A DNA stretch of 64,000 bases from an uncultured Chloroflexia bacterium (GCA_963814375.1 CAWFCQ010000003.1:96001-160000), one strand, 5' to 3'. Positions 8,490 to 39,839 are shown, counted from the stretch's first letter. The notes: generated from the sequence alone by a model not told the origin. Made by a program: numbers and translations.

Positions 8490-8508
8490 ACCGACGGCCC
8501 TCCGATGC

Positions 8509-9207: not shown

Positions 9208-9342
9208 CGGAGCACGATCCCTCCGGTCGTTGTCGGCGGTCGATGATGAGGGTGAAGGCATGGCCCGGACGGCCGATTGTAGCAGCGTCCTTTCGGGTAC
9301 CGACCACCTAGGGTCGAAGATCGGTCCAGGTGGTGCCGGTGG

Positions 9343-10732: not shown

Positions 10733-10734
10733 GG

Positions 10735-11274: not shown

Positions 11275-11444
11275 CGTTCGTACGCCTTCCTGCGCCGGAT
11301 CATACCAATCAGGCGGCGCGTGCTGGCGCGGGGTGCTTTCTGCTGGACTCCCCTTGTGACACGGGCCTACGATGCGCGCGGCTTCACGTGCCGAGCAACG
11401 GAGGTGCAGAGCGTGACGTCCTCGCACGGGCGCGCCTCGCGACG

Positions 11445-13971: not shown

Positions 13972-14082
13972 CTGACCGAGCGCCGAGCTCGCCCGTACCA
14001 CGGGGTGCATCCGTGCTCGAGTGGGACGGCCGATGTGGTCGATGGGCGGTGAGGCCGCCCCAGAGTAGAATTGGCGGCTGAT

Positions 14083-22620: not shown

Positions 22621-22770
22621 TGTGGCGGGATGAGCGTGGATCGGCGCCAGGGTCCCCCTGCTAGACTGTGATCGAGGCGCCCGCCTCGTGCAGCGTCTCG
22701 CCAACGATTGACAACATCGCGGACCGCGAGGTCCGCTCAGCAATCACCGCGCGTTGCGACCGGAGTGGAG

Positions 22771-23130
22771 ATGGATCACACCGGACTGCTCTACGTCATC
22801 GGTTTCGGGTTCGCCGCGACGACGTTCGTCTTCGGGACGATCCTGTTCAGCTGGCTGATCACCCATCGGCGCCGCAGCCCTCAGAAGGGCCTCCCGTACG
22901 AGTCGGGCGTCGACACCATCGGTGACACCTGGAGCCGGTTCGGACTGGCCTTCTATCTGTACGCCCTGCTCTTCGTGGCCTTCGACGTCGAGATCATCTT
23001 CGTCTACCTGTGGGCCATCACGGTGCGGGCCATCGAGTTCCAGGGGATCGTCCTGATCGGCATCTTCCTTGCGATCTTGATGTTCGGCGAGCTGTACGCG
23101 TGGAAGAAGGGGGACCTGCGATGGCAATAG
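22771..23130 (+). CDS. nuoA: Complex I subunit A
   Basis: [35 protein letters not shown] -10 at 22662. Confidence 0.95.
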
Positions 23131-23801
23131 ACCGAACGCCTCCGAGCGGCCACACCGAACCGCCCACGTCCGGAACCGAGCTCGTCGCCAACGACGGCGG
23201 GGGGCAGATCATCATCCCCGAGGGCGCGGGCGACGCCGATCTGCTGCGCCCGTTCGGGATGGAGGAGCATCCGCAGGGCGGGTTCCACGGCCTGCTCGAG
23301 GTGATTCCGACCAAAGCCGACCTCATCCTCGACCTGATCCGGGCGAACTCGCTATGGCCGCTCCTCTCGGGCCTGTCGTGCTGCGCGATCGAGATGATGA
23401 GCACGGCCACGAGCGTCAACGACATCGACCGATTCGGCTCGTTTCCGTTCCGTGCCAGCCCGCGACAGGCCGATGTTCTGATCGTGGCGGGGACACTCAC
23501 GACCAAGATGGCCGGGCCGCTCGTGCGCCTCTGGGAGCAGATGCCCGAGCCGAAATGGGTCGTGGCGATGGGGACCTGCACGACATCCGGCGGCCGCTTC
23601 AAGCGCTCCTACTCGGTCGTCCAGGGAGTCGACCGGGTCATGCCCGTCGATGTCTACGTGCCGGGCTGCCCGCCGCGCCCGGAGGGCCTCATCTACGGGA
23701 TGATGAAGCTCCACGAGCTCGTGAAGCAGCGGCGCGGCGAATGGAGCACGTTCGTCGACCGCGGACCGCAGCGGACGCGCTGGGAAGGAGACGTTCGCTG
23801 A
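23121..23801 (+). CDS. nuoB: Complex I subunit B
   Basis: [33 protein letters not shown]. Confidence 0.96.
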
Positions 23802-24439
23802 GCACGCCCGCGACCGCAGGCTCGCTCGTCCGAACCCTCACCGAGCGCCTGGGCCCCGACGTCGGCGACCTCTGGACCGATGAGGACACCGTCGAGTTCT
23901 CGATCGACGGTGCGCGCAACCTCGAGGTCCTGGCGCAGCTGCGCGACGATCCCGACCTCGGCTTCTTCATGCTGGCCGACGAGGCTGCCGTGGACTACGG
24001 CGTCGGCGCCCACTTCGAGGTGGTGTATCACCTGTTCAGCTGGAAGCACCCCGCCTGGCTTCGCGTGCGCGCCAAGGTCGACCGCGCCGACCCGCGCATC
24101 CGCTCCGTTACCCACCTGTGGGAGGGCGCGATGTTTCACGAGCGCGAGGCCTACGACATGATGGGCATCGTGTTCGAAGGCAACCGCGACCTGCGCCGGA
24201 TCTACATGTCGCCCGACTACCGCAGCTTCCCGCAGCGTCGCGACTTCATCCTGCCCGACGACGCCGCCGACTCGCCCGCCGCCGGCGTCAATCCGCTGGA
24301 GCGACCGGAGACGTGGGACCTTGCCCGCTTCCGTGACGCGCCGGCGGTGACGTATCCACCCGCGTCCGAGCGTGAGGACGCGCCGGCCGAGCGGGTCGAG
24401 TCTGGCGAGACGCTGGCCGATCGGAGCCGGCCGCGATGA
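23798..24439 (+). CDS. nuoC: Complex I subunit C (probable CTG start)
   Basis: [31 protein letters not shown] overlaps the nuoB TGA, with AAGGAG 7 nt upstream. Confidence 0.9.
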
Positions 24440-25719
24440 CGACGACTGATCCGGAGGTCCGCATCCCGGACCCGATCGAGCTCGACCGGGCCGAGGAGGC
24501 CCGCCTGCGTGCCGCCTCCGGTTTGACGCCGCCCGTCGAGCGGCGGCCCGAGTACGCCGGCTTCGAGTCGGTCGGGATCCCGGACCGGCCGCCGCAGACG
24601 GACCGCGAGCGAGACGTCTACAGCCTCGAGGAGGGCGAGATGCTCCTCAACATGGGGCCACAGCATCCGTCCACCCACGGTGTCATGCGCCTGGTCGTGA
24701 AGGTGCGCGGCGAGGTCATCATCGACATCGACCCGGTGCTCGGCTACCTCCATCGCGGGATCGAGAAGCTGTGCGAGAACGCGACCTACACGACCGTGCT
24801 CACCTACGTCGACCCGATGGACTACCTCGGCACGATGCACAACGAACACGCCCCGGCCATCGCCTTCGAGAAGCTGTACGGCATCCGGCCGCCGAAGCGG
24901 GCCGAGTACATCCGCGCGCTGGTGGTGGAGCTGAACCGCATCTTCAGCCACGGCCTGATGATGGGCTTCCTGGCGCTCGACATGGGCGGGCTGACCCCGA
25001 TCCTCTACAGCTTCATCAACCGCGACGAGATCGTCGACATGCTGTCGGCCATCAGCGGACAGCGGATGCTCTTCAACTTCTTCCGCGTCGGCGGCGTGAA
25101 CTGGGACACCAACGACGAGTTCCTCTCGCGGCTGGGGACGTGGCGCGGCACCGTCATGAAGAACATCGAGATGAACGAGCGGATGATCACGGAGAACGAG
25201 ATCTTCACCGCCCGGACGCGCGGGATGGGCGTCCTGACCGGCGACGAGGCCATCTCGCTCGGTGTCACCGGCCCGAACCTGCGAGCGTCCGGCGTGCCGT
25301 TCGACGTGCGCAAGGCCCACCCGTACTCGATCTACCACGAGCTCGAGTTCGACGTCATCACCCACCAGACCGGCGACTCGTACGCCCGCTACCTCCAGCG
25401 CATCGCCGAGGTCAAGCAGAGCATCCACCTCATCGACCAGATCGTGGACCGCATGCCGCACGGCGCGGTGCAGGCCCAGGTGCCGGGCATCATTCGCCCC
25501 AAGCCGGGCCGCGCCTACGGCGCCGTCGAGTCGCCGCGCGGGCTCTACAGCGTCTACGCCATCAGCGATGGCGGGCCCAACCCGTATCGGTTCCGAATGC
25601 GCGACCCGTCGTTCATCAGCCTCCAGGCGCTGCCCAAGGTCATGCCAGGCAAGCTCATCGCCGACACGATGGCGGTGATGGCCAGCTTCGACCCGGTCAT
25701 GGGCGGCGTGGACAAGTAG
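24436..25719 (+). CDS. nuoD: Complex I subunit D
   Basis: NMGPQHPSTHG, GYLHRGIEK, ESPRG, DPVMGGVDK. No NiFe-binding CxxC pairs. Confidence 0.96.
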   Translation: MTTTDPEVRIPDPIELDRAEEARLRAASGLTPPVERRPEYAGFESVGIPDRPPQTDRERDVYSLEEGEMLLNMGPQHPSTHGVMRLVVKVRGEVIIDIDPVLGYLHRGIEKLCENATYTTVLTYVDPMDYLGTMHNEHAPAIAFEKLYGIRPPKRAEYIRALVVELNRIFSHGLMMGFLALDMGGLTPILYSFINRDEIVDMLSAISGQRMLFNFFRVGGVNWDTNDEFLSRLGTWRGTVMKNIEMNERMITENEIFTARTRGMGVLTGDEAISLGVTGPNLRASGVPFDVRKAHPYSIYHELEFDVITHQTGDSYARYLQRIAEVKQSIHLIDQIVDRMPHGAVQAQVPGIIRPKPGRAYGAVESPRGLYSVYAISDGGPNPYRFRMRDPSFISLQALPKVMPGKLIADTMAVMASFDPVMGGVDK

Positions 25720-25746: not shown

Positions 25747-26757
25747 ATGGACTGGGAGCTCGTCCTCGGCCTCGGGCGCTTCGTGCTTGCCACGACGCTG
25801 ATCCTGCTGCTCACCGTGCCGACCGCGTTCGTGATCATCCAGATGGAGATGAAGATCATCGCCCAGCTGGCGCTGCGCTTCGGGCCGAACCGGATCGGTC
25901 CGCGCGGCATTTTCCAGAGCACCATCCACGGCTTCAAGGTGCTCGCCAAGGAGGACACCGTCCCCGACCAGGCCGACCGGGTCGCCTTCACGATGGCCCC
26001 CTGGATGGTGTACATGGCGGCGGCGATGAGCATGCTCGTCATGCCCTTCGCGCCCGGGGCGATCGCGGCCGACATGAACATCGGCATCGTCTACTTCTTC
26101 GCCGTCCTCGGTCTCTCGGTGGTCGGCCTGCTCGTGGCCGGGTGGGCCAGCTACAACAAGTACTCGCTGCTCGGCGGGCTGCGCTCCGCGGCGCAGATGG
26201 TGAGCTACGAGATCCCGCTGACCCTGTCCATCGTCGGGGCGGTCGTCCTGGCCGGGACCCTCAGCTTCAGCGAGCTCATCGCCTGGCAGCTGGAGCACGG
26301 CTGGCTGCTCTGGTGGCAGCCGGTCGGCCTCGCCATCTTCTACGTCGCCAGCCTGGCCGAGATCAACCGCACTCCGTTCGACATGGTCGAGGCCGACAGC
26401 GAGCTGGTGGCGGGCCCGTTCACCGAGTACTCCGGGATGCGCTTCGGCTTCTTCTTCTTCGCTGAGTACGTCGCGCTGTTCATCATGAGCGGCATCCTCA
26501 TCAGCCTCTTCTTCGGCGGCTGGCTGGCGCCGTGGCCATTTCCGGCCCAGCTGGGCGGGTTCGCCGGGACGCTGTACGGCATCTTTTGGTTCTTCCTCAA
26601 GACCTACATCTTCGTGGCGATCGCGGTCTGGCTGCGCGGCACCCTGCCCCGCGTCCGGGTCGACCAGCTGATGGGCATGGCCTGGAAGGTCCTGCTGCCG
26701 CTGGCGCTCATCAACCTGTTCGTCACGGCCATCGCGGTCGTCGTCTTCGAGCTGTAG
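25747..26757 (+). CDS. nuoH: Complex I subunit H
   Basis: GPNRIG, KYSLLGGLRSAAQMVSYE, NRTPFD...EADSELVAG, PRVRVDQLM. Confidence 0.96.
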   Translation: MDWELVLGLGRFVLATTLILLLTVPTAFVIIQMEMKIIAQLALRFGPNRIGPRGIFQSTIHGFKVLAKEDTVPDQADRVAFTMAPWMVYMAAAMSMLVMPFAPGAIAADMNIGIVYFFAVLGLSVVGLLVAGWASYNKYSLLGGLRSAAQMVSYEIPLTLSIVGAVVLAGTLSFSELIAWQLEHGWLLWWQPVGLAIFYVASLAEINRTPFDMVEADSELVAGPFTEYSGMRFGFFFFAEYVALFIMSGILISLFFGGWLAPWPFPAQLGGFAGTLYGIFWFFLKTYIFVAIAVWLRGTLPRVRVDQLMGMAWKVLLPLALINLFVTAIAVVVFEL

Positions 26758-26769
26758 GAGGACGGACCG

Positions 26770-27609
26770 ATGGCGTTCCCCGGTGCCGGCATCGCCAAGG
26801 GCATGGCCACGACATTCCGCAACTTCTTCGCGCCCAAGGTGACGCGCCAGTACCCCGAGGAGCGGCCCCAGATCCCCGATCGCTGGCGCGGTCGGCTCGA
26901 CCTGATCTACGACCCCTTCGGCGAGCACAAGTGCGAGGTCTGCTTCCAGTGCGCGCAGGTCTGCCCGGTCGAGGCCATCGACATGAGCGGATTCGACTCG
27001 ACCGGGAACCGGATCCGATACGGCCTGCCCGAGATCTACGACGAGCGCAAGGACGCCAACGCCTACCGCCGAGCGGGTCTGCCGGCTCGGCCGATGCGCA
27101 ACGCCGCGCGCTGGGATGAGGCCGTCGACACGCCGTGGGTCGACGAGACGATCGACGCCTTCGGCGGCCGATCCGAGGCTCTGGTCGCGATCTTCCGGGC
27201 CGTCCAGGATCGCTACGGCTACCTGCCCGAGCATGCGCTGCGTCGGATCAGCGATCGGCTGACGATCCACTGGGCACAGGTCTTCGGCGCCGCCGGGCTG
27301 GGCGGCTTCCGCCTGCTCCCGGCCGGCGGCCACGTCATCACCGTGTGTGACTGTGCCGCCTGCCGCTTCGCGGGCGGCAGCGCGGTCCTGGCGGCGGTCG
27401 AGAGCGAGCTCGGCATCCGGGCGGGCGAGGAGACCCCGGACGGGACCTTCAGCCTGGAGCGCGGCACCGATGTCGGCGCGGGCTCGCTGAGCCCGGCGAT
27501 CCGCATCGACACCCTCGTATTCGGGCCGGTCGACGCCGCCAAGGCTCGGCACATCGTCGGAGAGCGCCGCGCCACCGCAGCGCGCCCTGCGAGCGGGGCC
27601 GTCAGCTGA
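26770..27609 (+). CDS. Fusion of the NuoI N-terminal half with a degenerate NuoE-like domain
   Basis: TRQYPEE...RWRG...CEVCFQCAQVCPVEAI carries only one ferredoxin motif. NuoE part: VQDRYGYLP, VCDCAAC, TPDGTFSL; the second CxxxC reads DVGAG. Confidence 0.85.
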   Translation: MAFPGAGIAKGMATTFRNFFAPKVTRQYPEERPQIPDRWRGRLDLIYDPFGEHKCEVCFQCAQVCPVEAIDMSGFDSTGNRIRYGLPEIYDERKDANAYRRAGLPARPMRNAARWDEAVDTPWVDETIDAFGGRSEALVAIFRAVQDRYGYLPEHALRRISDRLTIHWAQVFGAAGLGGFRLLPAGGHVITVCDCAACRFAGGSAVLAAVESELGIRAGEETPDGTFSLERGTDVGAGSLSPAIRIDTLVFGPVDAAKARHIVGERRATAARPASGAVS

Positions 27610-28961
27610 TGGCCAGCACGATCTCCCCCCAGATCAGCATTCTGCCCGGCGGCGAGCACCGCCTGCTGACCGACATCGGTCGGGTCGACCCTACGAGCCT
27701 CGCCAGCTATCGCGAGCGCGGCGGGTACGGCGGCCTCGAGCGTGCGGTCACACGCCTCGCTCCAGAGGAGGTCATCGGTGAAATCGAGGCAGCCGGGCTA
27801 CGCGGCCGCGGAGGCTCCGGCTACTCGACCGGCGCGAAGTGGCGCGTCGCGCGGGAGGCGCCCGGCGACCGCACGATCGTCGTCGCCAACCTCATGGGCG
27901 CGGATCCGAGCGCCCTCGGCGATCGGGCCCTGGCCGAGGGCAATCCGCACCTGGTCGTCGAGGGCGCGCTGATCGCCGCCTATGCCGTCGGAGCAACCGA
28001 GGCGATCATCGCCGTCCGCCGCGACTGGACCGATGCGATCGCGCGGCTCCGGGCCGCCGCGGCCGAGGCGACCGAGGCGCACCTGGCCGGCTACCTCGTG
28101 CTTGGCACCGACACGAGCATCCAGCTCAGCGTGTGGGAAGGGTCCGGGGCGTACGTCGCGGGAGAGGAGACAGCGCTGCTGAACGCCCTGGCCGGCGACC
28201 GCGGCATGCCGGCCATTCGTCCGCCGTATCCGGCCACGCGCGGCCTGGGAGACGCACCGACCGTCGTCCAGAACGGCGAGACCCTGGCGCATGTCGCGTG
28301 GATCCTGTCGCACTCGGCGGAGGCGTTCGCATCGGTCGGCAGCGCGGCCAGCCGGGGCACGAAGCTGGTCACGGTCATGGGGCGGGTCGGCGAGCCCGGC
28401 CTGGTCGAGGTCCCGCTGGGCACCTCGCTGCTCGACATCGTAACCCTCGCCGGCGGCGGCACCGGCGCGAGCAAGGCGGCCTTCGTGGGCGGGCCGGGCG
28501 GTGGCGCGATCGAGTCCGGCGCGTTCAGCGGCACGCCATACGACTACGAGGCGCTCGAGGCCGCCGGCGCGATCATCGGCTCGGGCGCCGTCCTCGTGGT
28601 GGATGCGGCAACCTGCATGGTCGACAGCGCTCGATTCTTCGTCGACTTCAGCGCCCGAGAGGCGTGCGGCAAGGCCGTCCCGTGCCGCATCGGTACCAAG
28701 CGCCTGGTCGAGGGGCTCGACCGCATCCTGGCCGGGACGCCCCGACCGAACGACTTCAATCTTCTCCGCGAGCTCTCGCGCAAGATGAGCGACACGGCGC
28801 TGTGCAAGCTCGAGCGCCTGGCGCCGGGACCGATCCTCACGACGCTCGATCGGTTCGGCGACGAGTACCGGGCGCATGCCGAGCGCGGCGAGTGCCTGGC
28901 CGGCGCCTGCGCCACCGGCGGGCTGCCGCCCCTCATCTCCCCGTTGGCCGGGCTAGAGTAG
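27609..28961 (+). CDS. nuoF: NuoF/HydB-like flavoprotein subunit with degenerate motifs
   Basis: GLRGRGGSGY, GAYVAGEETAL, PPYPA, NGETL, CGKAVPCRIG, C-terminal H...CLAGAC. Confidence 0.85.
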   Translation: MASTISPQISILPGGEHRLLTDIGRVDPTSLASYRERGGYGGLERAVTRLAPEEVIGEIEAAGLRGRGGSGYSTGAKWRVAREAPGDRTIVVANLMGADPSALGDRALAEGNPHLVVEGALIAAYAVGATEAIIAVRRDWTDAIARLRAAAAEATEAHLAGYLVLGTDTSIQLSVWEGSGAYVAGEETALLNALAGDRGMPAIRPPYPATRGLGDAPTVVQNGETLAHVAWILSHSAEAFASVGSAASRGTKLVTVMGRVGEPGLVEVPLGTSLLDIVTLAGGGTGASKAAFVGGPGGGAIESGAFSGTPYDYEALEAAGAIIGSGAVLVVDAATCMVDSARFFVDFSAREACGKAVPCRIGTKRLVEGLDRILAGTPRPNDFNLLRELSRKMSDTALCKLERLAPGPILTTLDRFGDEYRAHAERGECLAGACATGGLPPLISPLAGLE

Positions 28962-28967
28962 GCCGCG

Positions 28968-31355
28968 ATGAGCTTCGGCACGACGAACGGCCACCCCACC
29001 AACGGCAATGGCGCCGGTGACGGCAAGGTCACCGACTACACGCCTATCTGGCCGATGGTGCCCGGGACCCGGAAGATCGCCGTCACCATCAACGGCGCCC
29101 AGGTCGAGGCCGAGGAGGGCCAGACCATCCTCCAGGCCTGCCGGGTGCTCGGCATCGAGGTCCCGACGCTGTGCTACGAGCCGAAGCTGGCGCCCTACGG
29201 GGCATGCCGCATCTGCGCGGTTGAGGTCGAGGGCCAGGACGACACGCCGATCTCGTGCGGTACCGCGATCACCGAGGGGATGGTCATCACCACCCACTCC
29301 GACCGGGTCGTCGAGAACCGTCGGATGGTGCTCGAGCTCATCTTCAGTGACCACGACGCGTACTGCCTGCCGCCCTGCCAGTTCAAGTGCCCGACCCGGG
29401 TCGACATTCCGGGCTACCTGAAGCAGAACACCCTGGGCAACTGGGAGGAGGCGACGCGCATCCTGAAGCGCTCCCTCCCGTTCCCGGCCATCCTCGGCCG
29501 CGTCTGCCCGGCGCCGTGCGAGACGCACTGCCGGCGCGAGGAAGTCGACACCGCCATCGCCATCCGCGACTCGCATCGGTACTGCGCCGACCGTGTGCTC
29601 GAAGTCGACGCTCCCGCGCCGATCCCGTGGCCGAAGGAGCCGGACACCGGGCGTCGAGTCGCGGTCATCGGCGCCGGCCCGGCCGGCATGAGCGTCGCCT
29701 ACTATCTCCAGCTGCGCGGGCACCACTGCGACGTCTTCGAGGCCGATCCTGAGCAGGGCGGCATGCTCCGCTACGGGATCCCGCAGTACCGCCTGCCGAA
29801 GGGCTGGATGGACCGCGAGCTCAACCACGTGTGGGAGCTGGGCGCGACCTTCCGCCCGAACATGCGGCTCGGGCGCGACTTCCATCTCGGCGACATCATC
29901 GACGAGTACGACGCGATCTACGTCGGCATCGGCTGCTACAAGCCGAACGAGCTCGGGATCCCGGGCGAGGAAGCCGACGGCATGGTCAACGCGTTGGAGA
30001 ACCTCTACAACTCGACGCGCGGAATTCCCGTGCCGCGGCTGAAGGGCGCGCGGGTGGTCGTCATCGGCGGGGGCTTCACGGCCATCGACTGCACGCGGAC
30101 CTCGGTGCGTCAGGGCGCCGCGGAGGTGACGCTCGTCTACCGCCGCGACCTGAAGGACATGCCCGCCGCGGACGAGGCGCACGAGGCGATCGAGGAGGGA
30201 GCGCGCCTCATCTTCCAGGCGGCGCCTACACGCATCGTCACCGACAACAAGAACAAGGTCACCGGCGTCGAGTTCCAGCGCATGAAGCTGGGCGAGCCGG
30301 ACGCCCAGGGCCGCCGCCGACCGGAGCCGATGCCGGGCACCGAGTTCATCGTCGAGTGCGACACCGTCCTCGGCGCCATCGGCCAGGGTCCGGAGCTGTC
30401 CTGGATCGAGTCGGAGCCCGACGAGCTCAAGGCCGGCCTCGAGGTCGACCGCCGCGGCAACCTCGTCAGCGAGGAGCACATCTTCCGCACCAACGTGCCG
30501 AAGATCTTCGCCTCCGGCGACGTGCGCACCGGCGCCGCCACCGTGGTGGAAGCGATCGGCGAGGGTCGCCGCGCCTCGTACGCGATGGACTACTGGCTGC
30601 GCGGCCACGACCTCGACGACCCGCAGGTGCGGCGCATCGTCACCGAGCCGCAGCCCAACTTCCTCACGATCGTGCCCTTCACCGACGACGTGAAGGAGCC
30701 GCGGGCGATCATGGGCAAGCAGGAGGCGGACGAGCGCAAGGGCAACTTCAACGAGTACGAGTTCGGCTACACCGGCGACCAGGCCATGGCCGAGGCGTCG
30801 CGCTGCCTCCAGTGCACCTGTGAGGCGATCGGCCACTGCGACCTGCGCGAGGCGGCGATCGAGTACGAGACGACGCTCAACATGGCGATCGACGAGCGCT
30901 CGATCCAGGACAACCCGTACGTCGGCGTCAACCACGGCTACGGCCGCGACGAGACCCACTCCTTCATCCTGCGCGACTACTCGCGCTGCATCGACTGCGG
31001 TCGATGCGCCCAGGTGTGCAAGGAGATCGTCGGCGCCGGCTGCTATGACTTCATCGGCAAGGGCTTCGACTCGCTGGTCACCACCGCCGACTACGTCAGC
31101 CTCAACGAGACGCCGTGCGTTTCCTGCGGCCGATGCGCGGAGACCTGCCCCGTCGGCGCCCTCATGCCGCGCCCGCGCATCCTCGAGACCTACCAGCTCG
31201 ACGTGTCGCGCTGCATCTTCTGCGGCATCTGCGCCGATGCCTGCCCGTACGACGCCCTGCGCTGCGGCCCCGAGTTCGAGTTCAGCGAGTATCAGCGCGA
31301 CCTGCCCATGCTCGACATCCTCGAGATGTCCGACCGGGAGCGACCTACCCGCTAG
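28968..31355 (+). CDS. NuoG-N/GltD (StnC/NsoC-like) FAD-NADPH Fe-S flavoprotein fused to the NuoI C-terminal half
   Basis: 2Fe-2S (PTLCY...GACRIC...SC); SDH...CLQCTC...CDL; GltD domain (PCQFKCP, GRVCPAPCE, GAGPAG, GGGFTA, YRR, GDV); 2x[4Fe-4S]; tail YQLDVSRCIFCGICADACPYDAL...EFEFSEYQR. Confidence 0.88.
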   Translation: MSFGTTNGHPTNGNGAGDGKVTDYTPIWPMVPGTRKIAVTINGAQVEAEEGQTILQACRVLGIEVPTLCYEPKLAPYGACRICAVEVEGQDDTPISCGTAITEGMVITTHSDRVVENRRMVLELIFSDHDAYCLPPCQFKCPTRVDIPGYLKQNTLGNWEEATRILKRSLPFPAILGRVCPAPCETHCRREEVDTAIAIRDSHRYCADRVLEVDAPAPIPWPKEPDTGRRVAVIGAGPAGMSVAYYLQLRGHHCDVFEADPEQGGMLRYGIPQYRLPKGWMDRELNHVWELGATFRPNMRLGRDFHLGDIIDEYDAIYVGIGCYKPNELGIPGEEADGMVNALENLYNSTRGIPVPRLKGARVVVIGGGFTAIDCTRTSVRQGAAEVTLVYRRDLKDMPAADEAHEAIEEGARLIFQAAPTRIVTDNKNKVTGVEFQRMKLGEPDAQGRRRPEPMPGTEFIVECDTVLGAIGQGPELSWIESEPDELKAGLEVDRRGNLVSEEHIFRTNVPKIFASGDVRTGAATVVEAIGEGRRASYAMDYWLRGHDLDDPQVRRIVTEPQPNFLTIVPFTDDVKEPRAIMGKQEADERKGNFNEYEFGYTGDQAMAEASRCLQCTCEAIGHCDLREAAIEYETTLNMAIDERSIQDNPYVGVNHGYGRDETHSFILRDYSRCIDCGRCAQVCKEIVGAGCYDFIGKGFDSLVTTADYVSLNETPCVSCGRCAETCPVGALMPRPRILETYQLDVSRCIFCGICADACPYDALRCGPEFEFSEYQRDLPMLDILEMSDRERPTR

Positions 31356-31555: not shown

Positions 31556-31927
31556 TCAGAACTTGTTCAGGTTGACCTGCCACTCGTCGCAGTCGCTGAC
31601 GACGGTGATGGTGTACTCGCCCTCGATCAGGTCGTTCACGAACGAGGTCGTGACGCGCTGCTGCTGCTCGTAGGTGAAGCCACCGTCGACCGAGGTGATC
31701 GAGACGACGACGTCCTCGCAGGTTGGTGCGGTGTACGAGAGGCGGTAGCGACCTGCCTGAAGCGGGAACGTCGTCCCCTCCTCGTCCTCCGACGTCGCTC
31801 TCGCGGCCTCGGGAAATTCCGAGGCGCCGTCATCGCCGCCTCCGCCACCACCACCTCCGCCGCACGCGGCGAGAAGCACGGTCAACGAAAGGAGCGCGAG
31901 CAGCGTGGTCCGTCTCAGCATCTCCAC
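31556..31927 (-). CDS. Small lipoprotein of unknown function
   Basis: AGGAGG RBS, signal peptide with lipobox LAAC, Gly linker and a beta-rich domain with two Cys. Confidence 0.8.
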   Translation of the reverse strand: MEMLRRTTLLALLSLTVLLAACGGGGGGGGGDDGASEFPEAARATSEDEEGTTFPLQAGRYRLSYTAPTCEDVVVSITSVDGGFTYEQQQRVTTSFVNDLIEGEYTITVVSDCDEWQVNLNKF

Positions 31928-32109
31928 GGGTCCTCCTACCCTCCAGAGCTCGGGGTTGGTCCGTTACGGGGAACCGCTTTGCTGTTGTGTGCGCGCTACC
32001 TTAGGCGAGCCCTCGACCGCCGCGCAATGGATTCGGCCGCTACGCTAGAATCGAGCGCGGCCCAGGATCGGGCCGCGAACGCTCGAACCTTCCTGTGGGA
32101 GCCACGGCC

Positions 32110-32619
32110 CTGGACATCTCCAGCGTTCTTTTTTACCTGCTCGCGATCGGCGTCGTGGGCGCCGGGCTCGCGGTGGTCACGCTGCGCAACATCATCCACT
32201 CGGCCGTGGCGATGATGGTCTGCTTCGGTTCACTGGCTGGCATGTACGCCCTCCTGGGTGCTCCGATCGTGGCTGCCGCGCAGGTGCTCATCTACCTCGG
32301 CGCGATCAGCGTCCTGATCCTCTTCGCCATCATGCTCACCCAGGCGGGCGACGCGAACCTGCCCGCGCCGTTCCACCGACAGCTGCCGATCGCGGTCGTG
32401 GTCGCCCTTGCGGTCACCGGCCTGGTCGGATGGGCGGTGGTCCAGACCGACTGGCAGATGGCCGCCGAGGTCACCGGCGCCGCGGTCGAGGCCATTGCGA
32501 CGGCTGTCTTCACGACCTATGCGCTGCCGTTCGAGATCATCAGCCTGCTTCTCCTCGTCGCGATCATCGGTGCCATCTTCCTGGCGCGCCGCCCGGAAGA
32601 GGACGAGCGCGCGAACTGA
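32110..32619 (+). CDS. nuoJ: Complex I subunit J (CTG 32110 or GTG 32095 start)
   Basis: NIIHSAV, AQVLIYLGAISVL, PFEIISLLLLVAIIGA. Own -10 TAGAAT at 32046. Confidence 0.93.
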   Translation: MDISSVLFYLLAIGVVGAGLAVVTLRNIIHSAVAMMVCFGSLAGMYALLGAPIVAAAQVLIYLGAISVLILFAIMLTQAGDANLPAPFHRQLPIAVVVALAVTGLVGWAVVQTDWQMAAEVTGAAVEAIATAVFTTYALPFEIISLLLLVAIIGAIFLARRPEEDERAN

Positions 32620-32622
32620 CCG

Positions 32623-32928
32623 ATGGGGATCCAGGGCTATCTCATCGTCTCGGCGCTGCTGTTCGGCATCGGCGCGTTCGGGTTCATGGTGCGCCGCAAC
32701 GCGATCCTCATGCTCATCAGCATCGAGCTCATGTTCAACGCGGTGAACCTGAGCCTCGTGGCCTTCAACGCCTATCTCCCGCCCGATGCGAATGCCGGCG
32801 CCGTCTTCGCGCTCATGATCATGGCCGTCGCCGCCGCCGAGGTGACGGTCGGGCTGGCCCTCGTGATCGCGATCATCCGTACGCGCCAGACGGCCGAGGT
32901 CGACCAGTACGCCGATCTGAAGGAGTAG
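32623..32928 (+). CDS. nuoK: Complex I subunit K
   Basis: RRNAI..LISIELMFNAVN, VAAAEVTVGLA. Confidence 0.96.
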   Translation: MGIQGYLIVSALLFGIGAFGFMVRRNAILMLISIELMFNAVNLSLVAFNAYLPPDANAGAVFALMIMAVAAAEVTVGLALVIAIIRTRQTAEVDQYADLKE

Positions 32929-32932
32929 CCCG

Positions 32933-35131
32933 ATGCCCATCGAGCTGCTGATCGCCCTCATTCCGGCGCTGCCCCTCGCCGGGTTCCTGTTCGCCGTGCT
33001 CGTCGGGCCGCGCATCGACCGCGTCCCGTCCCACGGTCACGACGAGCATCACGACGACGGCCACGCGAGCCACGATGATCACGGGCCGATCGACGACTCG
33101 AGCTTCCGCGGCATCCCGACCGAGGAGGAGCAGGCGGCGACCAGCCCGCACGCCGGGCACGCCGACGATCTCGCCAATGCCGAGGGCGCCGCCGGCGTCA
33201 TTCCCGCCGACATGAACGACGGCCTCGGGCAGGCCGGGCACGTGACCCCGGGCGGCCCGAAGCCTCGCTACCTGTCGTGGATCGTGCCGACCGGCCTGGT
33301 CGGGATCGGCTGGGTCATCAGCATGATCGTCGTCGCCGACGTGATCTTCGGCGGCAACGAGTACGAGGTGACGCTCTACGAGTGGATCGCATCGGGCGAC
33401 TTCCACGTCGAGATCAGCTTCCTCGTTGACAGCCTCACGGCGATGCTCCTGCTGGTCGTGAGCACGGTCGGGTTCCTCGTGCACGTCTACAGCATCGGCT
33501 ACATGGACGGCGACCGCGGGTTCTGGCGCTTCTTCGCCTACCTCAACCTGTTCATGTTCTCGATGCTGCTCCTCATCCTGGGCGACAACTTCCTGATGCT
33601 GTACGTCGGCTGGGAGGCGGTCGGCCTGTGCAGCTACGCGCTCATCGGCTTCTGGTACAAGAAGCCGTCGGCGGCGGGAGCCGCCAAGAAGGCGTTCGTC
33701 GTCAACCGCATCGGCGACCTGGGCTTCGGCCTGGGCGTGATGATGATCTGGGTCAACCTCGGCACGCTGAGCTTCCACGAGGTTTTCGAGACCATCGGCA
33801 CGCTCGACGAGGGCACGGTGACGGTCATCGCCCTCCTGCTCTTCGCCGGCGCCGTGGGCAAGTCAGCCCAGTTTCCGCTCCACGTCTGGCTGCCGGATGC
33901 CATGGAAGGGCCGACCCCCGTCAGCGCCCTCATCCACGCCGCGACGATGGTCAACGCCGGCGTGTACATGGTCGCTCGCGCCAACCCGATCTTCGCCGAG
34001 GCGCCGACCGCGATGCTGACCGTCGCCACCATCGGCGCATTCACCGCCATCTTCGCCGCGGCCATCGCACTGACCCAGAACGACATCAAGAAGGTCCTCG
34101 CCTACAGCACCGTCAGCCAGCTGGCCTACATGTTCCTGGCGCTCGGTGTCGGAGCCTGGGTCTCGGCCATCTTCCACCTCGTCAGCCACGGCTTCTTCAA
34201 GGGCCTGCTGTTCATGGGCTCCGGCTCCGTCATCCACGGGGCCGGCGGCGAGCAGGACATGCGGTACATGGGCAACCTGCGGGCGAGGATGCGCTGGACC
34301 TACGTGACGATGGTCATCGGCTCGCTGGCCCTGGCCGGCATCCCGCTCTTCGCCGGCTTCTTCAGCAAGGACGAGATCCTGGCCGAGACCTTCAACCGCG
34401 GCTACTACGTCTTCTACCTGATCGGCGTGATCGTGGCCTTCATGACCGCCTTCTACACGTTCCGGATGATCTTCATGACGTTCTGGGGTGAGTGGCGCGG
34501 GCCGGCCGCGATCTGGGAGCACGTCCACGAGAGCGCGGTGACCATGGTCGCGCCGCTCGTGCTCCTGTCGGTGCCCACGATCTTCGCCGGGCTTCTGCTG
34601 GGCATCCCGCCGGAGGGCGGCGTCATCCACACCTGGCTGGAGGAGGTCTTCCACGCTTCGGAGGAGGCCGGAGCGGGCATCCAGCCGGGCTCGATCGCAG
34701 CGACGAGCCACGAGGGGTTCCAGCTCCTCGGCTTCGGCGGCCTGCTGCTCGGCAGCGGCGCGCTGGTGGCGGCGCTCGGCGTCTGGCTGGCCTATCGCTG
34801 GTACGTCCGTGATCCCGAGGCGCCGGCCCGCTTCGTCGAGCGCTTCCCAGCCGGGCTCGGCCCGGGGATGTATCGGGCCAGCGTCAACAAGTACTACGTC
34901 GACGACATTTACGGGCTCGTGTTTGCCCGTGGCGGCGTCCTGCTGGCCGAGGCGCTGTGGTGGTTCGACGCGAGGATCATCGACGGCATCGTGAACGGCG
35001 CCGGCTGGCTGGCCTCGACCATCGGTGGTGGCCTGCGCAAGGTCCAGACCGGACGGGTCGAGAACTACGGGCTCGGCATCGCGGCCGGGCTGGCCGTGGT
35101 GCTCCTCGCCTACGCGACGGTGGTGCGCTGA
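32933..35131 (+). CDS. nuoL: Complex I subunit L with a His/acidic insertion after TM1
   Basis: YSIGYM, GWEAVGLCSY, NRIGD, GKSAQFPLHVWLPDAMEGPTPVSALIHAATMV, AYSTVSQ. Confidence 0.96.
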   Translation: MPIELLIALIPALPLAGFLFAVLVGPRIDRVPSHGHDEHHDDGHASHDDHGPIDDSSFRGIPTEEEQAATSPHAGHADDLANAEGAAGVIPADMNDGLGQAGHVTPGGPKPRYLSWIVPTGLVGIGWVISMIVVADVIFGGNEYEVTLYEWIASGDFHVEISFLVDSLTAMLLLVVSTVGFLVHVYSIGYMDGDRGFWRFFAYLNLFMFSMLLLILGDNFLMLYVGWEAVGLCSYALIGFWYKKPSAAGAAKKAFVVNRIGDLGFGLGVMMIWVNLGTLSFHEVFETIGTLDEGTVTVIALLLFAGAVGKSAQFPLHVWLPDAMEGPTPVSALIHAATMVNAGVYMVARANPIFAEAPTAMLTVATIGAFTAIFAAAIALTQNDIKKVLAYSTVSQLAYMFLALGVGAWVSAIFHLVSHGFFKGLLFMGSGSVIHGAGGEQDMRYMGNLRARMRWTYVTMVIGSLALAGIPLFAGFFSKDEILAETFNRGYYVFYLIGVIVAFMTAFYTFRMIFMTFWGEWRGPAAIWEHVHESAVTMVAPLVLLSVPTIFAGLLLGIPPEGGVIHTWLEEVFHASEEAGAGIQPGSIAATSHEGFQLLGFGGLLLGSGALVAALGVWLAYRWYVRDPEAPARFVERFPAGLGPGMYRASVNKYYVDDIYGLVFARGGVLLAEALWWFDARIIDGIVNGAGWLASTIGGGLRKVQTGRVENYGLGIAAGLAVVLLAYATVVR

Positions 35132-36651
35132 TGGACGGCGTCCCCCTGCTCACCCTGATCGTCTTCATGCCCGCACTCGGCGCGCTCCTCCTGCTGTTCG
35201 TGCCGGCCGACAACCATCGCGCCATCCGATGGATCGCCCTCGCCACGGCGCTGCTCACCTTTGCGCTCAGCCTGGTCCTGCTCGGCTACAACCCCGACGG
35301 CAGCGAGTTCCAGTTCCGCGAGGACCTCGAGTGGATCGACTTCTTCGGCATGCGCTACACGCTCGGCGTGGACGGCATCAGCGTCGTGCTGGTGATCCTG
35401 ACCACGCTGCTGAGCGTCGTGGCCATCCGCTACAGCTGGGAGCCGATCCAGACGAAGGTGCGGGCCTACTACGCCACGATGCTGGTGCTGATGGTCGGCA
35501 TGCTCGGCGTGTTCGTCGCCCTCGACCTCTTCCTCTTCTACGTCTTCTGGGAAGTCAGCCTCTTCCCGATGTACTTCGTCATCGGCGTCTGGGGCGGCCC
35601 GCGTCGCATCTACGCCACGGTGAAGTTCGTCATCTACACCCTGGTCGGCTCGCTGCTCATGCTCGTCGCCATCCTGGCCGTGGCGATCGCGTACGCATCG
35701 GCCGGCAACCCGTTCACCTTCAGCTACGAGGCGCTCCGCGGCTTCGCCTACGCCGATTCGCTCCAGGCCGTCGCATTCATCGCCTTCTTCCTCGCCTTCG
35801 CCATCAAGGTGCCGATGTGGCCGCTCCACACCTGGCTGCCCGATGCGCACGTCGAGGCCCCCACCGCCGGCTCGATCATCCTGGCTGGCGTGCTGCTCAA
35901 GCTCGGCGGCTACGGCTTCCTGCGCTACAACCTGCCGCTCCTGCCCGATGCCGCCGTGACCTTCGCGCCGATCATCATCGGGTTGAGCATCATCGCCATC
36001 ATCTACGGCGGCCTGGTGGCGATGGTGCAGCCCGACATGAAGAAGCTGGTGGCGTACTCGAGCGTGAGCCACATGGGCTTCGTCATGCTCGGCGCGTTCG
36101 TCTTCAACACCCAGGGCCTCCAGGGCGCCGTCTACCAGATGATCAGCCACGGCATCACGACCGGTGCGCTGTTCCTGCTGGTGGGCATCATCTACGAGCA
36201 GACCCACGATCGCGAGATCTCGCACATGGGCGGCCTCAACGCCCGGCTGCCCCACTACGCGGCCATGTTCGGCCTCTTCACCTTCGCCAGCATCGGGCTG
36301 CCTGGGCTGTCGGGGTTCATCGGCGAGTTCCTCGTCATCTTGGGCGCCTTCGAGTCGAACGGCTTCGTGGCGGCGGCGGCGATGGTGGTGGTCATCATCA
36401 GCGCGGTCTACATGCTGTGGATGTTCCAGCGCGTCTTCTTCACTGTGCCATCCGATTGGATGCGCCGATGGTGGCCGTCGCTGCGCGACATGAGCAGCGG
36501 CGAGTGGCAGTCGCTCGCGCCGCTGGTGGTGCTGGTCGTGGCGCTGGGGGTCTATCCCGGACCGATCCTCGAGATCATCAGCGCGCCGGTCGAGCGAATC
36601 ATCGAGGCGGTCAACGGCGCCGGGCTCACCGGCCTCGGGCCGCTGTGGTGA
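35131..36651 (+). CDS. nuoM: Complex I subunit M
   Basis: DLFLFYVFWE, IKVPMWPLHTWLPDAHVEAPT, AYSSVSHMG, GLPGLSGFIGE. Confidence 0.96.
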   Translation: MDGVPLLTLIVFMPALGALLLLFVPADNHRAIRWIALATALLTFALSLVLLGYNPDGSEFQFREDLEWIDFFGMRYTLGVDGISVVLVILTTLLSVVAIRYSWEPIQTKVRAYYATMLVLMVGMLGVFVALDLFLFYVFWEVSLFPMYFVIGVWGGPRRIYATVKFVIYTLVGSLLMLVAILAVAIAYASAGNPFTFSYEALRGFAYADSLQAVAFIAFFLAFAIKVPMWPLHTWLPDAHVEAPTAGSIILAGVLLKLGGYGFLRYNLPLLPDAAVTFAPIIIGLSIIAIIYGGLVAMVQPDMKKLVAYSSVSHMGFVMLGAFVFNTQGLQGAVYQMISHGITTGALFLLVGIIYEQTHDREISHMGGLNARLPHYAAMFGLFTFASIGLPGLSGFIGEFLVILGAFESNGFVAAAAMVVVIISAVYMLWMFQRVFFTVPSDWMRRWWPSLRDMSSGEWQSLAPLVVLVVALGVYPGPILEIISAPVERIIEAVNGAGLTGLGPLW

Positions 36652-36662
36652 GGGGCTGACGG

Positions 36663-38123
36663 ATGGACATGGTCGACGACCTCGTCACTCTCCTGCCGGA
36701 GCTGATCCTGACGGTGCTCGTCCTCGTCATCATCACCACGGACCTCTTCATCTCGCGCGCGAACAAGTGGCTGCTGACCCCGCTCACCGTGGCCGGCCTC
36801 ATCCTGGCCGGGGCGGCGTGCTTCGTGGTGTGGGACGTCAACGAGACGGTGTACGGCGGCTTCTACGTCGTCGACGACCTGTCGGTGTTCCTGAAGGGCG
36901 CCACCATCCTGATCGGCATCCTCTCCGCCCTCTTCGCGCCGGCCTACCTCCTCGTCCGACGCATCCCGCTCGGCGAGTTCAACACGATCCTGGTGACCGC
37001 GCTCATCGGCATGTGCGTGCTGGCCTCGAGCAGCGACTTCATCACCCTCTTCCTGGGCCTCGAGCTGATGACGATGCCGTCCTACCTGCTGACCGGGCTC
37101 CACAAGACCGACCGATACAGCAACGAGGGCGGGCTCAAGTACTTCCTGCTCGGCAGCTTCGCCAGCGCCATCCTCCTGTTCGGCGTAGCCTGGATGTACG
37201 GCCTCACCGGCACCACGAACATCGGCGCCATCGCGGCGTCGCTCGACGGCCAGATGAGCGCCGGCATCCTGGTGGCGGTCGGGTTCCTGACCGTGGGCGC
37301 GACCTTCAAGATCGCGGCGGTGCCGTTCCACTACTGGACGCCGGACGCCTACCAGGGCGCCCCGACACCCATCACCGGATTCCTCTCGGTCGGCCCCAAG
37401 CTCGGCGCCTTCGCGCTCGTGATCCGGATCTTCGTCGAGGCCCTGGCCCCGTTGCGGACCGATTGGCTGGCGGTGTTCCTGGTCCTGACGGTGCTGACCA
37501 TGACGATCGGCAACGTGGTGGCGCTGACGCAGACCAACGTCAAGCGGATGCTGGCCTACTCGAGCATCGCCCACACCGGCTACATCATGGCCGGCCTCGC
37601 CGCGTACGCGAACGCGACCGATCCGGAGGCCGCGGCCCAGGGCATCCAGGCGGTCCTCTTCTACCTCCTCGCCTACGCGGTCATGAACATCGCGGCCTTC
37701 GCGATGGTGGCGATGCTCCAGCGCGACACGGGCCGCTTCGGTGGGCTCAACTCCTTCGCCGGCCTCGCCTCGCGCGCCCCGTGGCACGCCGCCGCGATGA
37801 CCGTGCTGCTGCTGAGCCTGACCGGAATTCCCCCTACCGTCGGCTTCTTCGCGAAGCTCCTCATCCTGCTCGCCACGGTCGAGTCCGGGCTCATCTGGCT
37901 GGCGGTCGTCGTCGCGCTCAACGCGGCGCTGGCGGCGTTCTACTACCTGCGCGTCGTGGTCTACATGTACATGCGCGATCCCGAGCCGGAGCCCGCTCCG
38001 ATCGACACCAACCCGTTCGGCTCGGTGGCCCTGGCCGTCTCGGTGGCCGGCGTGATCGCGCTCGGGATCTTCCCGGGAGCCATCCTGCGCCTGGTCGAGG
38101 TCTCTGCGGCCAGTATCTTCTAG
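36663..38123 (+). CDS. nuoN: Complex I subunit N
   Basis: EGGLKYF, FKIAAVPFHYWTPDAYQGAP, KRMLAYSSIAH, GIPPTVGF. Confidence 0.96.
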   Translation: MDMVDDLVTLLPELILTVLVLVIITTDLFISRANKWLLTPLTVAGLILAGAACFVVWDVNETVYGGFYVVDDLSVFLKGATILIGILSALFAPAYLLVRRIPLGEFNTILVTALIGMCVLASSSDFITLFLGLELMTMPSYLLTGLHKTDRYSNEGGLKYFLLGSFASAILLFGVAWMYGLTGTTNIGAIAASLDGQMSAGILVAVGFLTVGATFKIAAVPFHYWTPDAYQGAPTPITGFLSVGPKLGAFALVIRIFVEALAPLRTDWLAVFLVLTVLTMTIGNVVALTQTNVKRMLAYSSIAHTGYIMAGLAAYANATDPEAAAQGIQAVLFYLLAYAVMNIAAFAMVAMLQRDTGRFGGLNSFAGLASRAPWHAAAMTVLLLSLTGIPPTVGFFAKLLILLATVESGLIWLAVVVALNAALAAFYYLRVVVYMYMRDPEPEPAPIDTNPFGSVALAVSVAGVIALGIFPGAILRLVEVSAASIF

Positions 38124-39660: not shown

Positions 39661-39839
39661 CGCGATATGTCGCGGCCGATGCACCAGAGGCGATCCCGAG
39701 GTGCTGTTCCCACGATGTTTCGCGGCCCGGCACGCCTGAGCAGCACCTCCGGGTGGCGCTCAGGCATGGCAGCCGCGCGATGGATCGCGAGAATGCAACC
39801 CGCGGACGCCTTCTGGTGAAGTGGCCGCGATCAATCGCG
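39661..39839. repeat. ~180-bp imperfect palindrome between convergent otsA and otsB
   Basis: CGCGATATGTCGCGGCC...CACCAGAGGCG / CGCCTTCTGGTG...GGCCGCGATCAATCGCG; apex stem GCCTGAGC/GCTCAGGC. Confidence 0.65.

Follow-up and report, generated by a model that had tools for sequence, protein, structure and literature searches.

A respiratory complex I operon with nuoI divided around an Nfn/Stn-type cassette

The window examined here, 64,000 nucleotides from an uncultured Chloroflexia bacterium (GCA_963814375.1, CAWFCQ010000003.1:96001-160000), contains a nuo operon for respiratory complex I in which the nuoI gene is split. Its two halves are fused to the first and last proteins of a three-gene cassette of the Nfn/Stn type, which lies between nuoH and nuoJ at positions 26770-31355. 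The product is probably a non-bifurcating, proton-pumping NAD(P)H:quinone complex I whose NuoI clusters, N6a and N6b, are ligated by two different polypeptides. The sequence comes from a metagenome-assembled genome (MAG) of 2.52 Mb in 8 contigs, 89% complete. Near-identical proteins are named 'Candidatus Limnocylindria' (Chloroflexota), a class that we take to be the former Ellin6529 group.

Two halves of NuoI

The genes run along the plus strand at 22.7-38.1 kb in the order nuoA-B-C-D-H, P0001-P0002-P0003, nuoJ-K-L-M-N. This is the arrangement that the original prediction had read from the sequence, an 11-subunit operon whose nuoI encloses an E-F-G' cassette, and open reading frame (ORF) and family matches bear it out. 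P0001 (26770-27609, 279 residues) fuses the N-terminal half of NuoI to a NuoE/BfuC-like domain; P0002 (27609-28961, 450 residues) is a NuoF/BfuB-like flavoprotein core; and P0003 (28968-31355, 795 residues) resembles NfnA/StnC over its N-terminal 730 residues and ends in the C-terminal half of NuoI. P0001 overlaps P0002 by one base (spacing -1), and 6 bases separate P0002 from P0003. The NuoI position between nuoH and nuoJ is kept: 12 bases separate nuoH from the N-half gene, and no other coding sequence of that strand comes between the C-half and nuoJ.

Evidence for the split comes from complementary matches to the NuoI profile (NCBIfam TIGR01971, 121 positions, curated cut-off 113.05 bits). 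Residues 11-81 of P0001 (26800-27012) match profile positions 1-70 at 57.0 bits, and residues 737-778 of P0003 (31176-31301) match positions 71-112 at 54.0 bits; together the two matches cover positions 1-112 and sum to about the cut-off. Complementary half-matches of this kind had been set beforehand as the test of the claim that the N-half opens the ORF at 26770 and runs into a NuoE domain, and that the C-half ends the ORF at 28968. The NuoE/BfuC-like, thioredoxin-type domain does follow the N-half, at P0001 residues 125-264 (27142-27561; PF01257, E 3e-25). The N-half aligns to residues 23-82 of Escherichia coli NuoI and 6-71 of Thermus thermophilus Nqo9, and the C-half to residues 90-128 and 86-126 of the same two proteins. 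In searches of the PDB, the top 36 of 40 matches to the N-half are chains of the NuoI, TYKY, NDUFS8, or NdhI type, including Nqo9 and the NuoI homologue of MBH; for the C-half, NuoI chains are the best single-stretch matches.

The 2x[4Fe-4S] ferredoxin fold builds each cluster from three cysteines of one motif and the fourth cysteine of the other. A regular-expression search finds the motif CxxCxxCxxxCP once in P0001 (residue 55) and three times in P0003 (residues 674, 717, and 749). In alignments with solved NfnA, the first two P0003 motifs (C674-C684 and C717-C727) fall on its A2/A4 domain, which leaves exactly one orphan motif on each protein: C55-P66 in P0001, the first motif of NuoI, and C749-P760 in P0003, the second. 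No single polypeptide here contains two NuoI-type motifs, and because the fold draws cysteines from both, the orphans would bind clusters only together. All ten orphan-motif residues are invariant across the aligned Limnocylindria sequences: C55, C58, C61, C65, and P66 of P0001 in 20 sequences (identity down to 27%), and C749, C752, C755, C759, and P760 of P0003 in 11 sequences (identity down to 47%). From this motif arithmetic and strict conservation we infer that the halves pair in trans, jointly ligating N6a and N6b.

An intact nuoI, whose absence had been predicted, was sought elsewhere and rejected. Nothing in the MAG scores above the cut-off in a whole-genome search with TIGR01971, which picked up just the two halves and ferredoxin matches of a generic kind. 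Likewise, five of five further genomes from families f2 to f5 of the class (92-97% complete) contain complementary halves only, and no NuoI above the cut-off.

The remainder of the enzyme is complete. Family matches account for NuoA, B, C, D, H, J, K, L, M, and N, and a motif check of NuoB finds all four cysteine positions of the N2 cluster (the tandem CC, the C in GTC..GG, and GCPP). The whole genome contains one nuoD, one nuoH, and one NuoF-like gene, P0002. A second complex I is ruled out by the single nuoD locus and the single nuoH match, and the nuo locus is therefore the organism's only respiratory complex I, with an ordinary membrane arm and quinone module.

The inserted cassette

Among solved structures, P0003 and P0002 are closest to subunits A and B, respectively, of 9bov, 8oh5, and 9n5u. 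Residues 35-759 of P0003 align to 9bov_A 2-699 (E 1.5e-167), with further matches to 8oh5_C and 9n5u_A; residues 19-435 of P0002 align to 9bov_B 106-524. Entry 8oh5 is StnABC of S. ovata, and the 9n5u chains are named NfnA and NfnB. We take 9bov to be the Nfn of C. saccharolyticus, because its chain B residue numbers match the NfnB numbers given in PMC11829005. The inserted cassette had been described as Stn/Nso-like. Its Nfn/Stn kinship is clear from these structures; in this genome, however, it is a reduced derivative and not a bifurcating Stn.

P0003 has the NfnA/StnC layout, and all cysteines concerned are invariant. An N-terminal [2Fe-2S] domain, equivalent to A1/N1b, occupies residues 35-111 (29070-29300; PF13510, E 2.3e-19), with cysteines C69, C80, C83, and C97. 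A GltD/NfnL-like FAD and NAD(P)H domain with two [4Fe-4S] motifs, which aligns to the GltD domain of NfnA/StnC, follows at residues 134-546 (29367-30605; PF14691, Fer4_20, and PF07992, Pyr_redox_2). Residues 667-732 (30966-31163) form a HydA/NuoG-type ferredoxin-like domain holding Cys motifs 1 and 2, the A2/A4 equivalents; they match positions 4-66 of the 67 in PF22117 (Fer4_Nqo3), and align to the same domain of 9bov_A. P0003 lacks the C-terminal, molybdopterin-type Fdh/NuoG-like domain with cluster A5. NfnA and StnC run about 470 residues further (lengths 1178 and 1172), whereas P0003 has the NuoI C-half in that place and ends 36 residues after the NuoI motif.

P0002 contains the NuoF-type FMN, SLBB, and 4Fe-4S domains of Pfam. 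It corresponds only to residues 106-524 of the 584-residue NfnB, without the N-terminal thioredoxin-like and C-terminal 2x[4Fe-4S] domains of BfuB; accordingly, Pfam finds no Fer4 or PF01257 domain in it.

A reduced input module

Bifurcating enzymes of this type are marked by the BfuBC core, as set out in PMC9304861, and by the [B1-FMN-C1] flavobicluster, as described in PMC11829005. P0002 has none of the end domains for sites B2-B5, and the flavobicluster of P0001 and P0002 is incomplete. At the NuoE-like [2Fe-2S] site of P0001 (C1), alignments retain two of the four cysteines, the second pair being D and G; this pair is lost in all five Limnocylindria families, and family f2 is without the whole thioredoxin-like part. 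The N3/B1 motif of P0002 retains three of its four cysteines. The C1 cluster is lost, as are the BfuB end domains with the ferredoxin site, so a simple NAD(P)H:quinone oxidoreductase is to be expected. The same loss of ligands and domains rules out a functional bifurcating Stn in the MAG.

The B1 site was compared between P0002 and its orthologues in loci L018-L027. The second B1 cysteine is Ala or Thr in six of the eleven aligned sequences (Ala in P0002), and family f2 and one member of f3 keep all four cysteines. The six sequences without the second cysteine read C-x-x-E at the fourth-cysteine motif and the other five read C-G-x-G, a pattern among related, not independent, sequences. The Glu of C-x-x-E may be a replacement ligand for B1.

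Around the flavin, the second FMN loop of P0002 diverges from canonical NuoF/BfuB, and the glycine-rich loop and GEE motif are kept or conservatively replaced. At the positions of the NADH contacts reported for NfnB (Gly156, Phe159, Lys164, Glu274, and Phe294; PMC11829005), P0002 has G, Y, K, E, and Y by our count on the 9bov_B alignment, so the NADH pocket looks usable. The NADPH/FAD arm is intact, with all its Cys motifs invariant, and by homology NADPH would be the substrate of the P0003 FAD site. The module had been called an NADPH input; an FAD/NADPH-type site is indeed present, but this is half of the picture, as an FMN/NADH-type site is kept too.

A proposed electron path

In soluble Nfn/Stn enzymes electrons follow the path FAD-A7-A6-A3-A2-A1-[B1-FMN-C1], and a side branch, A2-A4-A5, leads into an inactive Fdh-like domain that is considered an evolutionary remnant (PMC11829005, PMC10482914). 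These descriptions suggest how the Limnocylindria enzyme might work. The halves contributed by P0001 and P0003 would reassemble into one 2x[4Fe-4S] fold, N6a and N6b each taking three cysteines from one polypeptide and one from the other, and the reassembled NuoI would fix the Nfn/Stn-derived module to NuoB and NuoD. NADPH would deliver its electrons to the FAD of the GltD-like domain, from which they would pass through the two [4Fe-4S] clusters of that domain to the Y-junction clusters, the A2/A4 domain, N6a/N6b, N2, and finally quinone. NADH probably would enter at the NuoF-like FMN, through A1, meeting the NADPH path at the Y-junction. The A2-A4-A5 branch, a dead end in the soluble enzymes, would then be the exit, with the NuoI C-half in place of the Fdh-like domain.

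The canonical complex I chain runs N4-N5-N6a (PMC8880783), through the A3-type branch. Here that branch leads to the GltD domain, and NuoI is fused beside the A4-type cluster; from this domain order, NuoI would dock at the other arm of the junction.

Recurrence among the Limnocylindria

The original prediction called for a survey of related MAGs, and the same two fusions are present there. Forty relatives were compared: 24 of the same genus (including the unpublished G006), 8 from families f3 and f4, and 8 from f2 and f5. Among the same-genus genomes, 22 of 24 encode the P0001-type fusion at full length; in one it lies in two contig-end pieces, and one genome (63% complete) is without it. All eight f3/f4 genomes contain the fusion, and all eight f2/f5 genomes a shorter form. 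A P0003-type protein extends to the NuoI C-half in 37 of the 40. The order A-B-C-D-H-[IN::E]-F-[G'::IC]-J-K-L-M-N was found at each of the six loci fetched from f1, f3, and f4. Family f2 instead has a five-gene cluster, nuoB-nuoD-[IN::E']-F-[G'::IC], at four of four loci (L020, L021, L024, and L025), and an f2 relative gives complementary TIGR01971 matches of 1-66 and 69-111. In these clusters nuoA, nuoC, nuoH, and nuoJ-N are not alongside, and all four B1 cysteines are kept; nuoH lies elsewhere in the three f2/f5 genomes examined (on another contig in the f2 genomes checked).

A draw of 301 genomes from the phylum gave, among the matches listed, hits spanning both parts of the fusion only in f1, f3, and f4 (33 genomes). 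One further listed match, in G322, covers query residues 51-257 with two internal stops, and 251 weaker matches lie beyond those listed. The draw included the unpublished genomes G180 and G258: G180 is among the matches listed, the sole match of G258 is not, and neither is among those spanning both parts. None of the three unpublished genomes carries a conclusion by itself. Confinement of the fusion to one genus is ruled out by its presence in the other families and at Thermoleophilia loci (see below).

Two genomes contain more than one such locus. In G039, of family f2, an apparently canonical nuo operon lies some 20 kb from the split-type cluster, at about 90-97 kb of contig C21; it includes a second nuoD, nuoH, the N-terminus of a NuoG, a NuoE-like match, and a separate NuoI-like one. 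G022, of the same genus as the window, has at G022:C2:52666-57289 a second P0001-P0003 cassette in many broken frames, 65-98% identical to the window proteins; a duplicate in decay, contaminating DNA, and faulty assembly are all conceivable origins.

This recurrence bears directly on whether the split might be an artefact of assembly or gene calling (through contig chimerism, a frameshift, or loss of a stop codon). The sequence does come from a MAG, and frames are broken at 4 (N-half fusion) and 8 (C-half fusion) of the 78 loci reached through P0150 (see below). However, the fusions recur in the relatives, among those same loci, and in hundreds of metagenome proteins, and short contigs of other studies span each junction, at 26931-27311 (X1 record 2) and at 30822-31202 (X3 record 22). 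These short contigs come mostly from relatives, the best public run holding at most 0.27 of the sampled words. Contigs of the metatranscriptomic library X15 also cover the region, a coverage that is by itself no sign of transcription. Recurrence in dozens of independent genomes of two phyla excludes a chimeric assembly, and the chance that the split is an artefact of any kind is negligible.

A fuller version in the Thermoleophilia

A search of 1.8 billion representative proteins identified distant fusion clusters, P0147, P0150, P0163, P0166, and P0177, at 30-37% identity. P0147, P0163, and P0166 are 50%-identity clusters of metagenome NuoI-N::NuoE fusions, each 30-37% identical to P0001. All four [2Fe-2S] cysteines are present in P0147 and P0166, and three in P0163. 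P0150 led to 78 loci, about 70 of them from MAGs titled Thermoleophilia or Actinomycetota. The N-half and NuoE part share one frame at 58 of these loci, are broken at 4, and are unjudgeable at 16; the NfnA part and C-half share one frame at 43, are broken at 8, and are unjudgeable at 27. (Unjudgeable loci are those that end early or gave no match.) Eight of eight Thermoleophilia loci inspected have the operon order of the window, and one relative yields complementary TIGR01971 matches of 2-66 and 70-114. A class-level draw around one Thermoleophilia genome found the full-length fusion in 23 of 151 genomes. Three Thermoleophilia genomes were checked for an intact NuoI: two have one elsewhere, and the third has none.

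The Thermoleophilia module is of the complete Bfu type. Its NuoE-like domain has four [2Fe-2S] cysteines, and the 641-residue BfuB at locus L029 has the N-terminal thioredoxin-like domain, canonical FMN and NADH motifs, a CxxCxxC B1 motif, and the C-terminal 2x[4Fe-4S] domain. By sequence, the flavobicluster cysteines are complete in P0147, P0150, P0166, P0177, and L029. The architecture is thus not a one-off, and judged by these motifs the Thermoleophilia carry its fuller version.

The 11 Limnocylindria and 35 Thermoleophilia NfnA::NuoI-C proteins, 46 in all, fall cleanly apart by phylum in a tree built with FastTree (LG+gamma, 792 columns, midpoint root). Six of 41 Thermoleophilia ORFs had been dropped for want of three Cys motifs in their last 200 residues. 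Having no outgroup, the tree identifies neither donor nor direction.

The genome of L029 contains a second such cassette, in a pyruvate:ferredoxin oxidoreductase (POR) cluster (L106, G332:C44:17000-36000, minus strand, about 6702-14799). Its gene order is POR gamma, POR alpha, P0418, a full BfuB, and a protein of about 1063 residues. P0418, of the P0177 family, joins a CxxCxxCxxxCP half to a NuoE-like domain with four cysteines; in the long protein, 2Fe-2S, GltD-type, and Fer4_Nqo3 domains are followed by a third Fer4 motif and by PorB (TPP_enzyme_C) as a fusion. NuoI models give the top score for either ferredoxin half. From this second cassette, the split ferredoxin looks like a docking device that can be reused.

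It is possible, though we hold the idea tentatively, that a ferredoxin split between the BfuC N-terminus and the BfuA C-terminus is a general device for wiring Nfn-type BfuC-B-A cassettes into partner enzymes. The Thermoleophilia cassette inside nuoI would then link NADH, NADPH, ferredoxin, and quinone in one complex I, with bifurcation or confurcation at a proton pump, and the Limnocylindria enzyme would be an aerobic, simplified end point.

Alternative readings

Several observations weigh against an NAD(P)H-oxidizing complex I with a trans-assembled NuoI. Either half alone scores below the TIGR01971 cut-off. The C-half motif also is a good generic ferredoxin motif, and polyferredoxins rank above NuoI by whole-sequence E-value, because many weak repeats are summed. 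Pfam Fer4_7 fits P0003 motifs 2 and 3 as one dicluster domain (717-763), so that sequence alone leaves room for intramolecular pairing; the proposed pairing in trans is itself a reading of sequence. As the MAG is incomplete, a nuoI on unassembled DNA is conceivable for this genome taken alone. The FMN arm is partly eroded (one B1 cysteine replaced by Ala, the C1 site lost, and the second FMN loop altered), which makes NADH input uncertain. Finally, a 739-base gap containing an antisense ORF (31556-31927) separates P0003 from nuoJ in this genus: the predicted operon layout holds in its order, and fails in being seamless.

Structure predictions weigh on neither side. A complex prediction with P0001 1-112, P0003 733-795, alignments, and two 4Fe-4S clusters scored 0.29, set against a mark of 0.32. 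AlphaFold2 gave P0001 a mean pLDDT of 63.8, with a confident NuoE-like part and residues 22-115 below 50; for P0003 the mean was 52.8, and residues 560-795 fell below 50, including the well-established ferredoxin-like domain. The low values for the half-motifs are uninformative, because the alignments were shallow and the models contained no clusters.

The main rival accepts the architecture and the trans-assembled NuoI, and differs in the substrate: the NuoE- and NuoF-like parts would be structural relics, and the enzyme would reduce quinone with NADPH alone, oxidized at the GltD-like FAD site. The losses at C1 across all five families, at B1 in six of the eleven sequences, and in the second FMN loop point in this direction, the more so when set beside the invariant Cys motifs of the FAD arm. 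Moreover, the genome has a PntB gene, whose product can link the NADH and NADPH pools elsewhere, which keeps an NADPH-only enzyme in contention. We nevertheless consider it unlikely. P0002 is the genome's only NuoF-like protein; it preserves, exactly or by conservative replacement, the glycine-rich loop, the GEE motif, and the five NADH-contact residues; the full set of B1 cysteines survives in f2 and in one f3 member; and each of the six sequences lacking one offers a possible Glu ligand in exchange. A more radical proposal leaves the halves unpaired, their motifs decaying or binding nothing, and takes P0001-P0003 for a soluble, Nfn-like NADPH:NAD+ transhydrogenase that happens to be encoded in a nuo operon. 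The closest solved relatives are indeed soluble transhydrogenases, and the sub-threshold scores of both halves would fit. However, in complex I no electrons reach N2 without the NuoI clusters, yet this is the genome's only complex I and there is no other nuoI to supply them. The ten motif residues would hardly be invariant, nor the complementary half-matches recur in a second phylum, if the halves were idle. In addition, the Fdh-like domain, linked to stability or assembly of soluble Stn (PMC10482914), is absent from P0003. With the ferredoxin-reducing parts needed for Nfn/Stn chemistry missing as well, such an enzyme is very improbable.

Reverse electron flow in complex I is established, and the enzyme could in principle serve mainly as a reverse or coupled transhydrogenase: quinol and proton motive force would reduce NADP+ (and NAD+), or the wire between FAD and FMN would swap hydride between NADPH and NAD+. 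Two dinucleotide sites on one Fe-S wire would allow this, and the Nfn/Stn relatives are described as reversible (PMC11829005, PMC10482914). Against it, PntB already provides NADPH formation driven by proton motive force, and the genome context examined holds no pointer to quinol-generating lithotrophy, although no survey was aimed at it. Such a role as the enzyme's main one seems highly doubtful. Forward oxidation of NADPH, and probably NADH, by a complex I with a trans-assembled NuoI is the reading that we favour.

Relation to known systems

F420-dependent Fpo and ferredoxin-dependent NDH-1 combine an 11-subunit core with lineage-specific electron input, and in both an intact FpoI/NdhI docks the donor. 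We know of no complex I relative with a split subunit I. Three related designs are already on record: alternative input modules on an 11-subunit core, a predicted BfuABC module inside a nuo cluster, and replacement of NuoI by a gltD-type protein.

The canonical 14-subunit enzyme (T. thermophilus Nqo1-14, E. coli Nuo) shares the membrane arm, the quinone module with N2 ligands, a NuoF-type flavoprotein, the NuoG-type N-terminal [2Fe-2S] domain, and NuoI-type clusters. However, its NuoI is one polypeptide instead of two, and its E-F-G genes lie between nuoD and nuoH, whereas E-F-G' lies inside nuoI here; the window module is without the molybdopterin-like body of NuoG, and has in addition a GltD-type FAD/NAD(P)H domain. 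Nfn-Bfu and StnABC share the P0003 domain order (2Fe-2S, GltD/NfnL, ferredoxin-like) and the gene order (E-like, F-like, A-like). These enzymes are soluble, whereas the cassette here is embedded in a nuo operon; they carry the Fdh-like domain of about 470 residues where P0003 has the NuoI C-half; and they have the C1 ligands, the BfuB N-terminal domain, and the C-terminal ferredoxin domain (B3/B4) that are missing in the window and kept by the Thermoleophilia relatives.

Forms of complex I with 11 subunits, and NDH-1, are mentioned in PMC4758237 and PMC9304861. The predicted Nuo-Bfu and Mbh-Bfu enzymes (Schut et al. 2022, PMC9304861) also have a BfuABC module amid a complex I-type cluster, where it replaces the NADH module. 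As described there, they differ in belonging to Deferribacteres, Proteobacteria, Planctomycetes, and Nitrospirae, and in having 14 subunits, A-N; the words 'fused', 'fusion', and 'split' are absent from the text of that paper, which mentions no GltD domain for Nuo-Bfu. Mbx-like operons (Degli Esposti 2015, PMC4758237) resemble the present one in placing a GltD-type NAD(P)H flavoprotein at the NuoI position. According to that account NuoI is replaced and the enzyme reduces an acceptor, whereas here both halves of NuoI persist in a quinone-reducing nuo operon.

Full-text literature searches yielded no published description of a split NuoI, or of an Nfn/Stn module inside nuoI, in keeping with the original statement that none was known; the supplementary clade tables and figures of PMC9304861, outside that search, might list such operons. 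What is new is the split itself, in which the first and the last protein of an Nfn/Stn-type cassette each carry one half of NuoI, and the standing of this enzyme as the sole complex I of a widespread soil class, the Limnocylindria, as judged from those examined. The apparent use of the remnant A2-A4 branch as an exit is new as well.

Implications

If the halves pair as proposed, they provide a natural case of one ferredoxin fold, with its two clusters, held in common by two polypeptides and bolting a module onto complex I. The input module of complex I could then be changed by inserting a gene cassette into a subunit gene, and such an in-gene insertion by an 11-subunit complex, as first suggested, is a plausible history. 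Direct entry of NADPH into complex I would bear on the NADH/NADPH balance of abundant soil Limnocylindria and of many Thermoleophilia. The fuller Thermoleophilia version, in turn, would make the idea of a bifurcating or confurcating complex I, put forward for Nuo-Bfu (PMC9304861), testable on a defined architecture. These questions should interest specialists in complex I and in bifurcation. There is also a consequence for annotation: proteins of the P0001 and P0003 types now go by the names 'NADH:ubiquinone oxidoreductase subunit E', 'formate dehydrogenase major subunit', or 'FAD-dependent oxidoreductase', which will lead pathway callers to score nuoI as missing.

Other genes of the region

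The remaining nuo genes, all on the plus strand, were assigned by family matches. Upstream of the cassette lie nuoA (22708-23130, ORF limits with the true start uncertain; NCBIfam NuoA models, E 3.5e-20); nuoB (23010-23801, ORF limits; TIGR01957, 221 bits, above cut-off), whose true start probably is later because the profile match begins only at residue 98; nuoC (23354-24439, ORF limits; TIGR01961, E 9.7e-32, with the match from residue 184); nuoD (24436-25719; NF004739, 415 bits, above cut-off); and nuoH (25747-26757; NF004741, 314.8 bits, above cut-off). Downstream are nuoJ (32095-32619; PF00499, E 1.1e-34); nuoK (32623-32928; NF004320, 106 bits, above cut-off); nuoL (32933-35131; NF005141, 725 bits, above cut-off); nuoM (34957-36651, ORF limits; PF00361, E 6.7e-76), whose true start again is probably later because the ORF overlaps nuoL; and nuoN (36663-38123; TIGR01770, 444 bits, above cut-off).

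The minus-strand ORF between P0003 and nuoJ (31556-31927, 123 residues) matches no Pfam family and is not part of the complex. It has a lipoprotein-like signal, with a Cys followed by a Gly run, and a weak homologue (34% identity over 97 residues) occupies the same place in L022, of the same genus. A gap of this kind is absent from the other families. Directly after nuoN stands a gene of the trehalose-6-phosphate synthase type (38128-39645, plus strand; PF00982), and beyond it a gene of the trehalose-phosphatase type (39760-40671, minus strand; PF02358).

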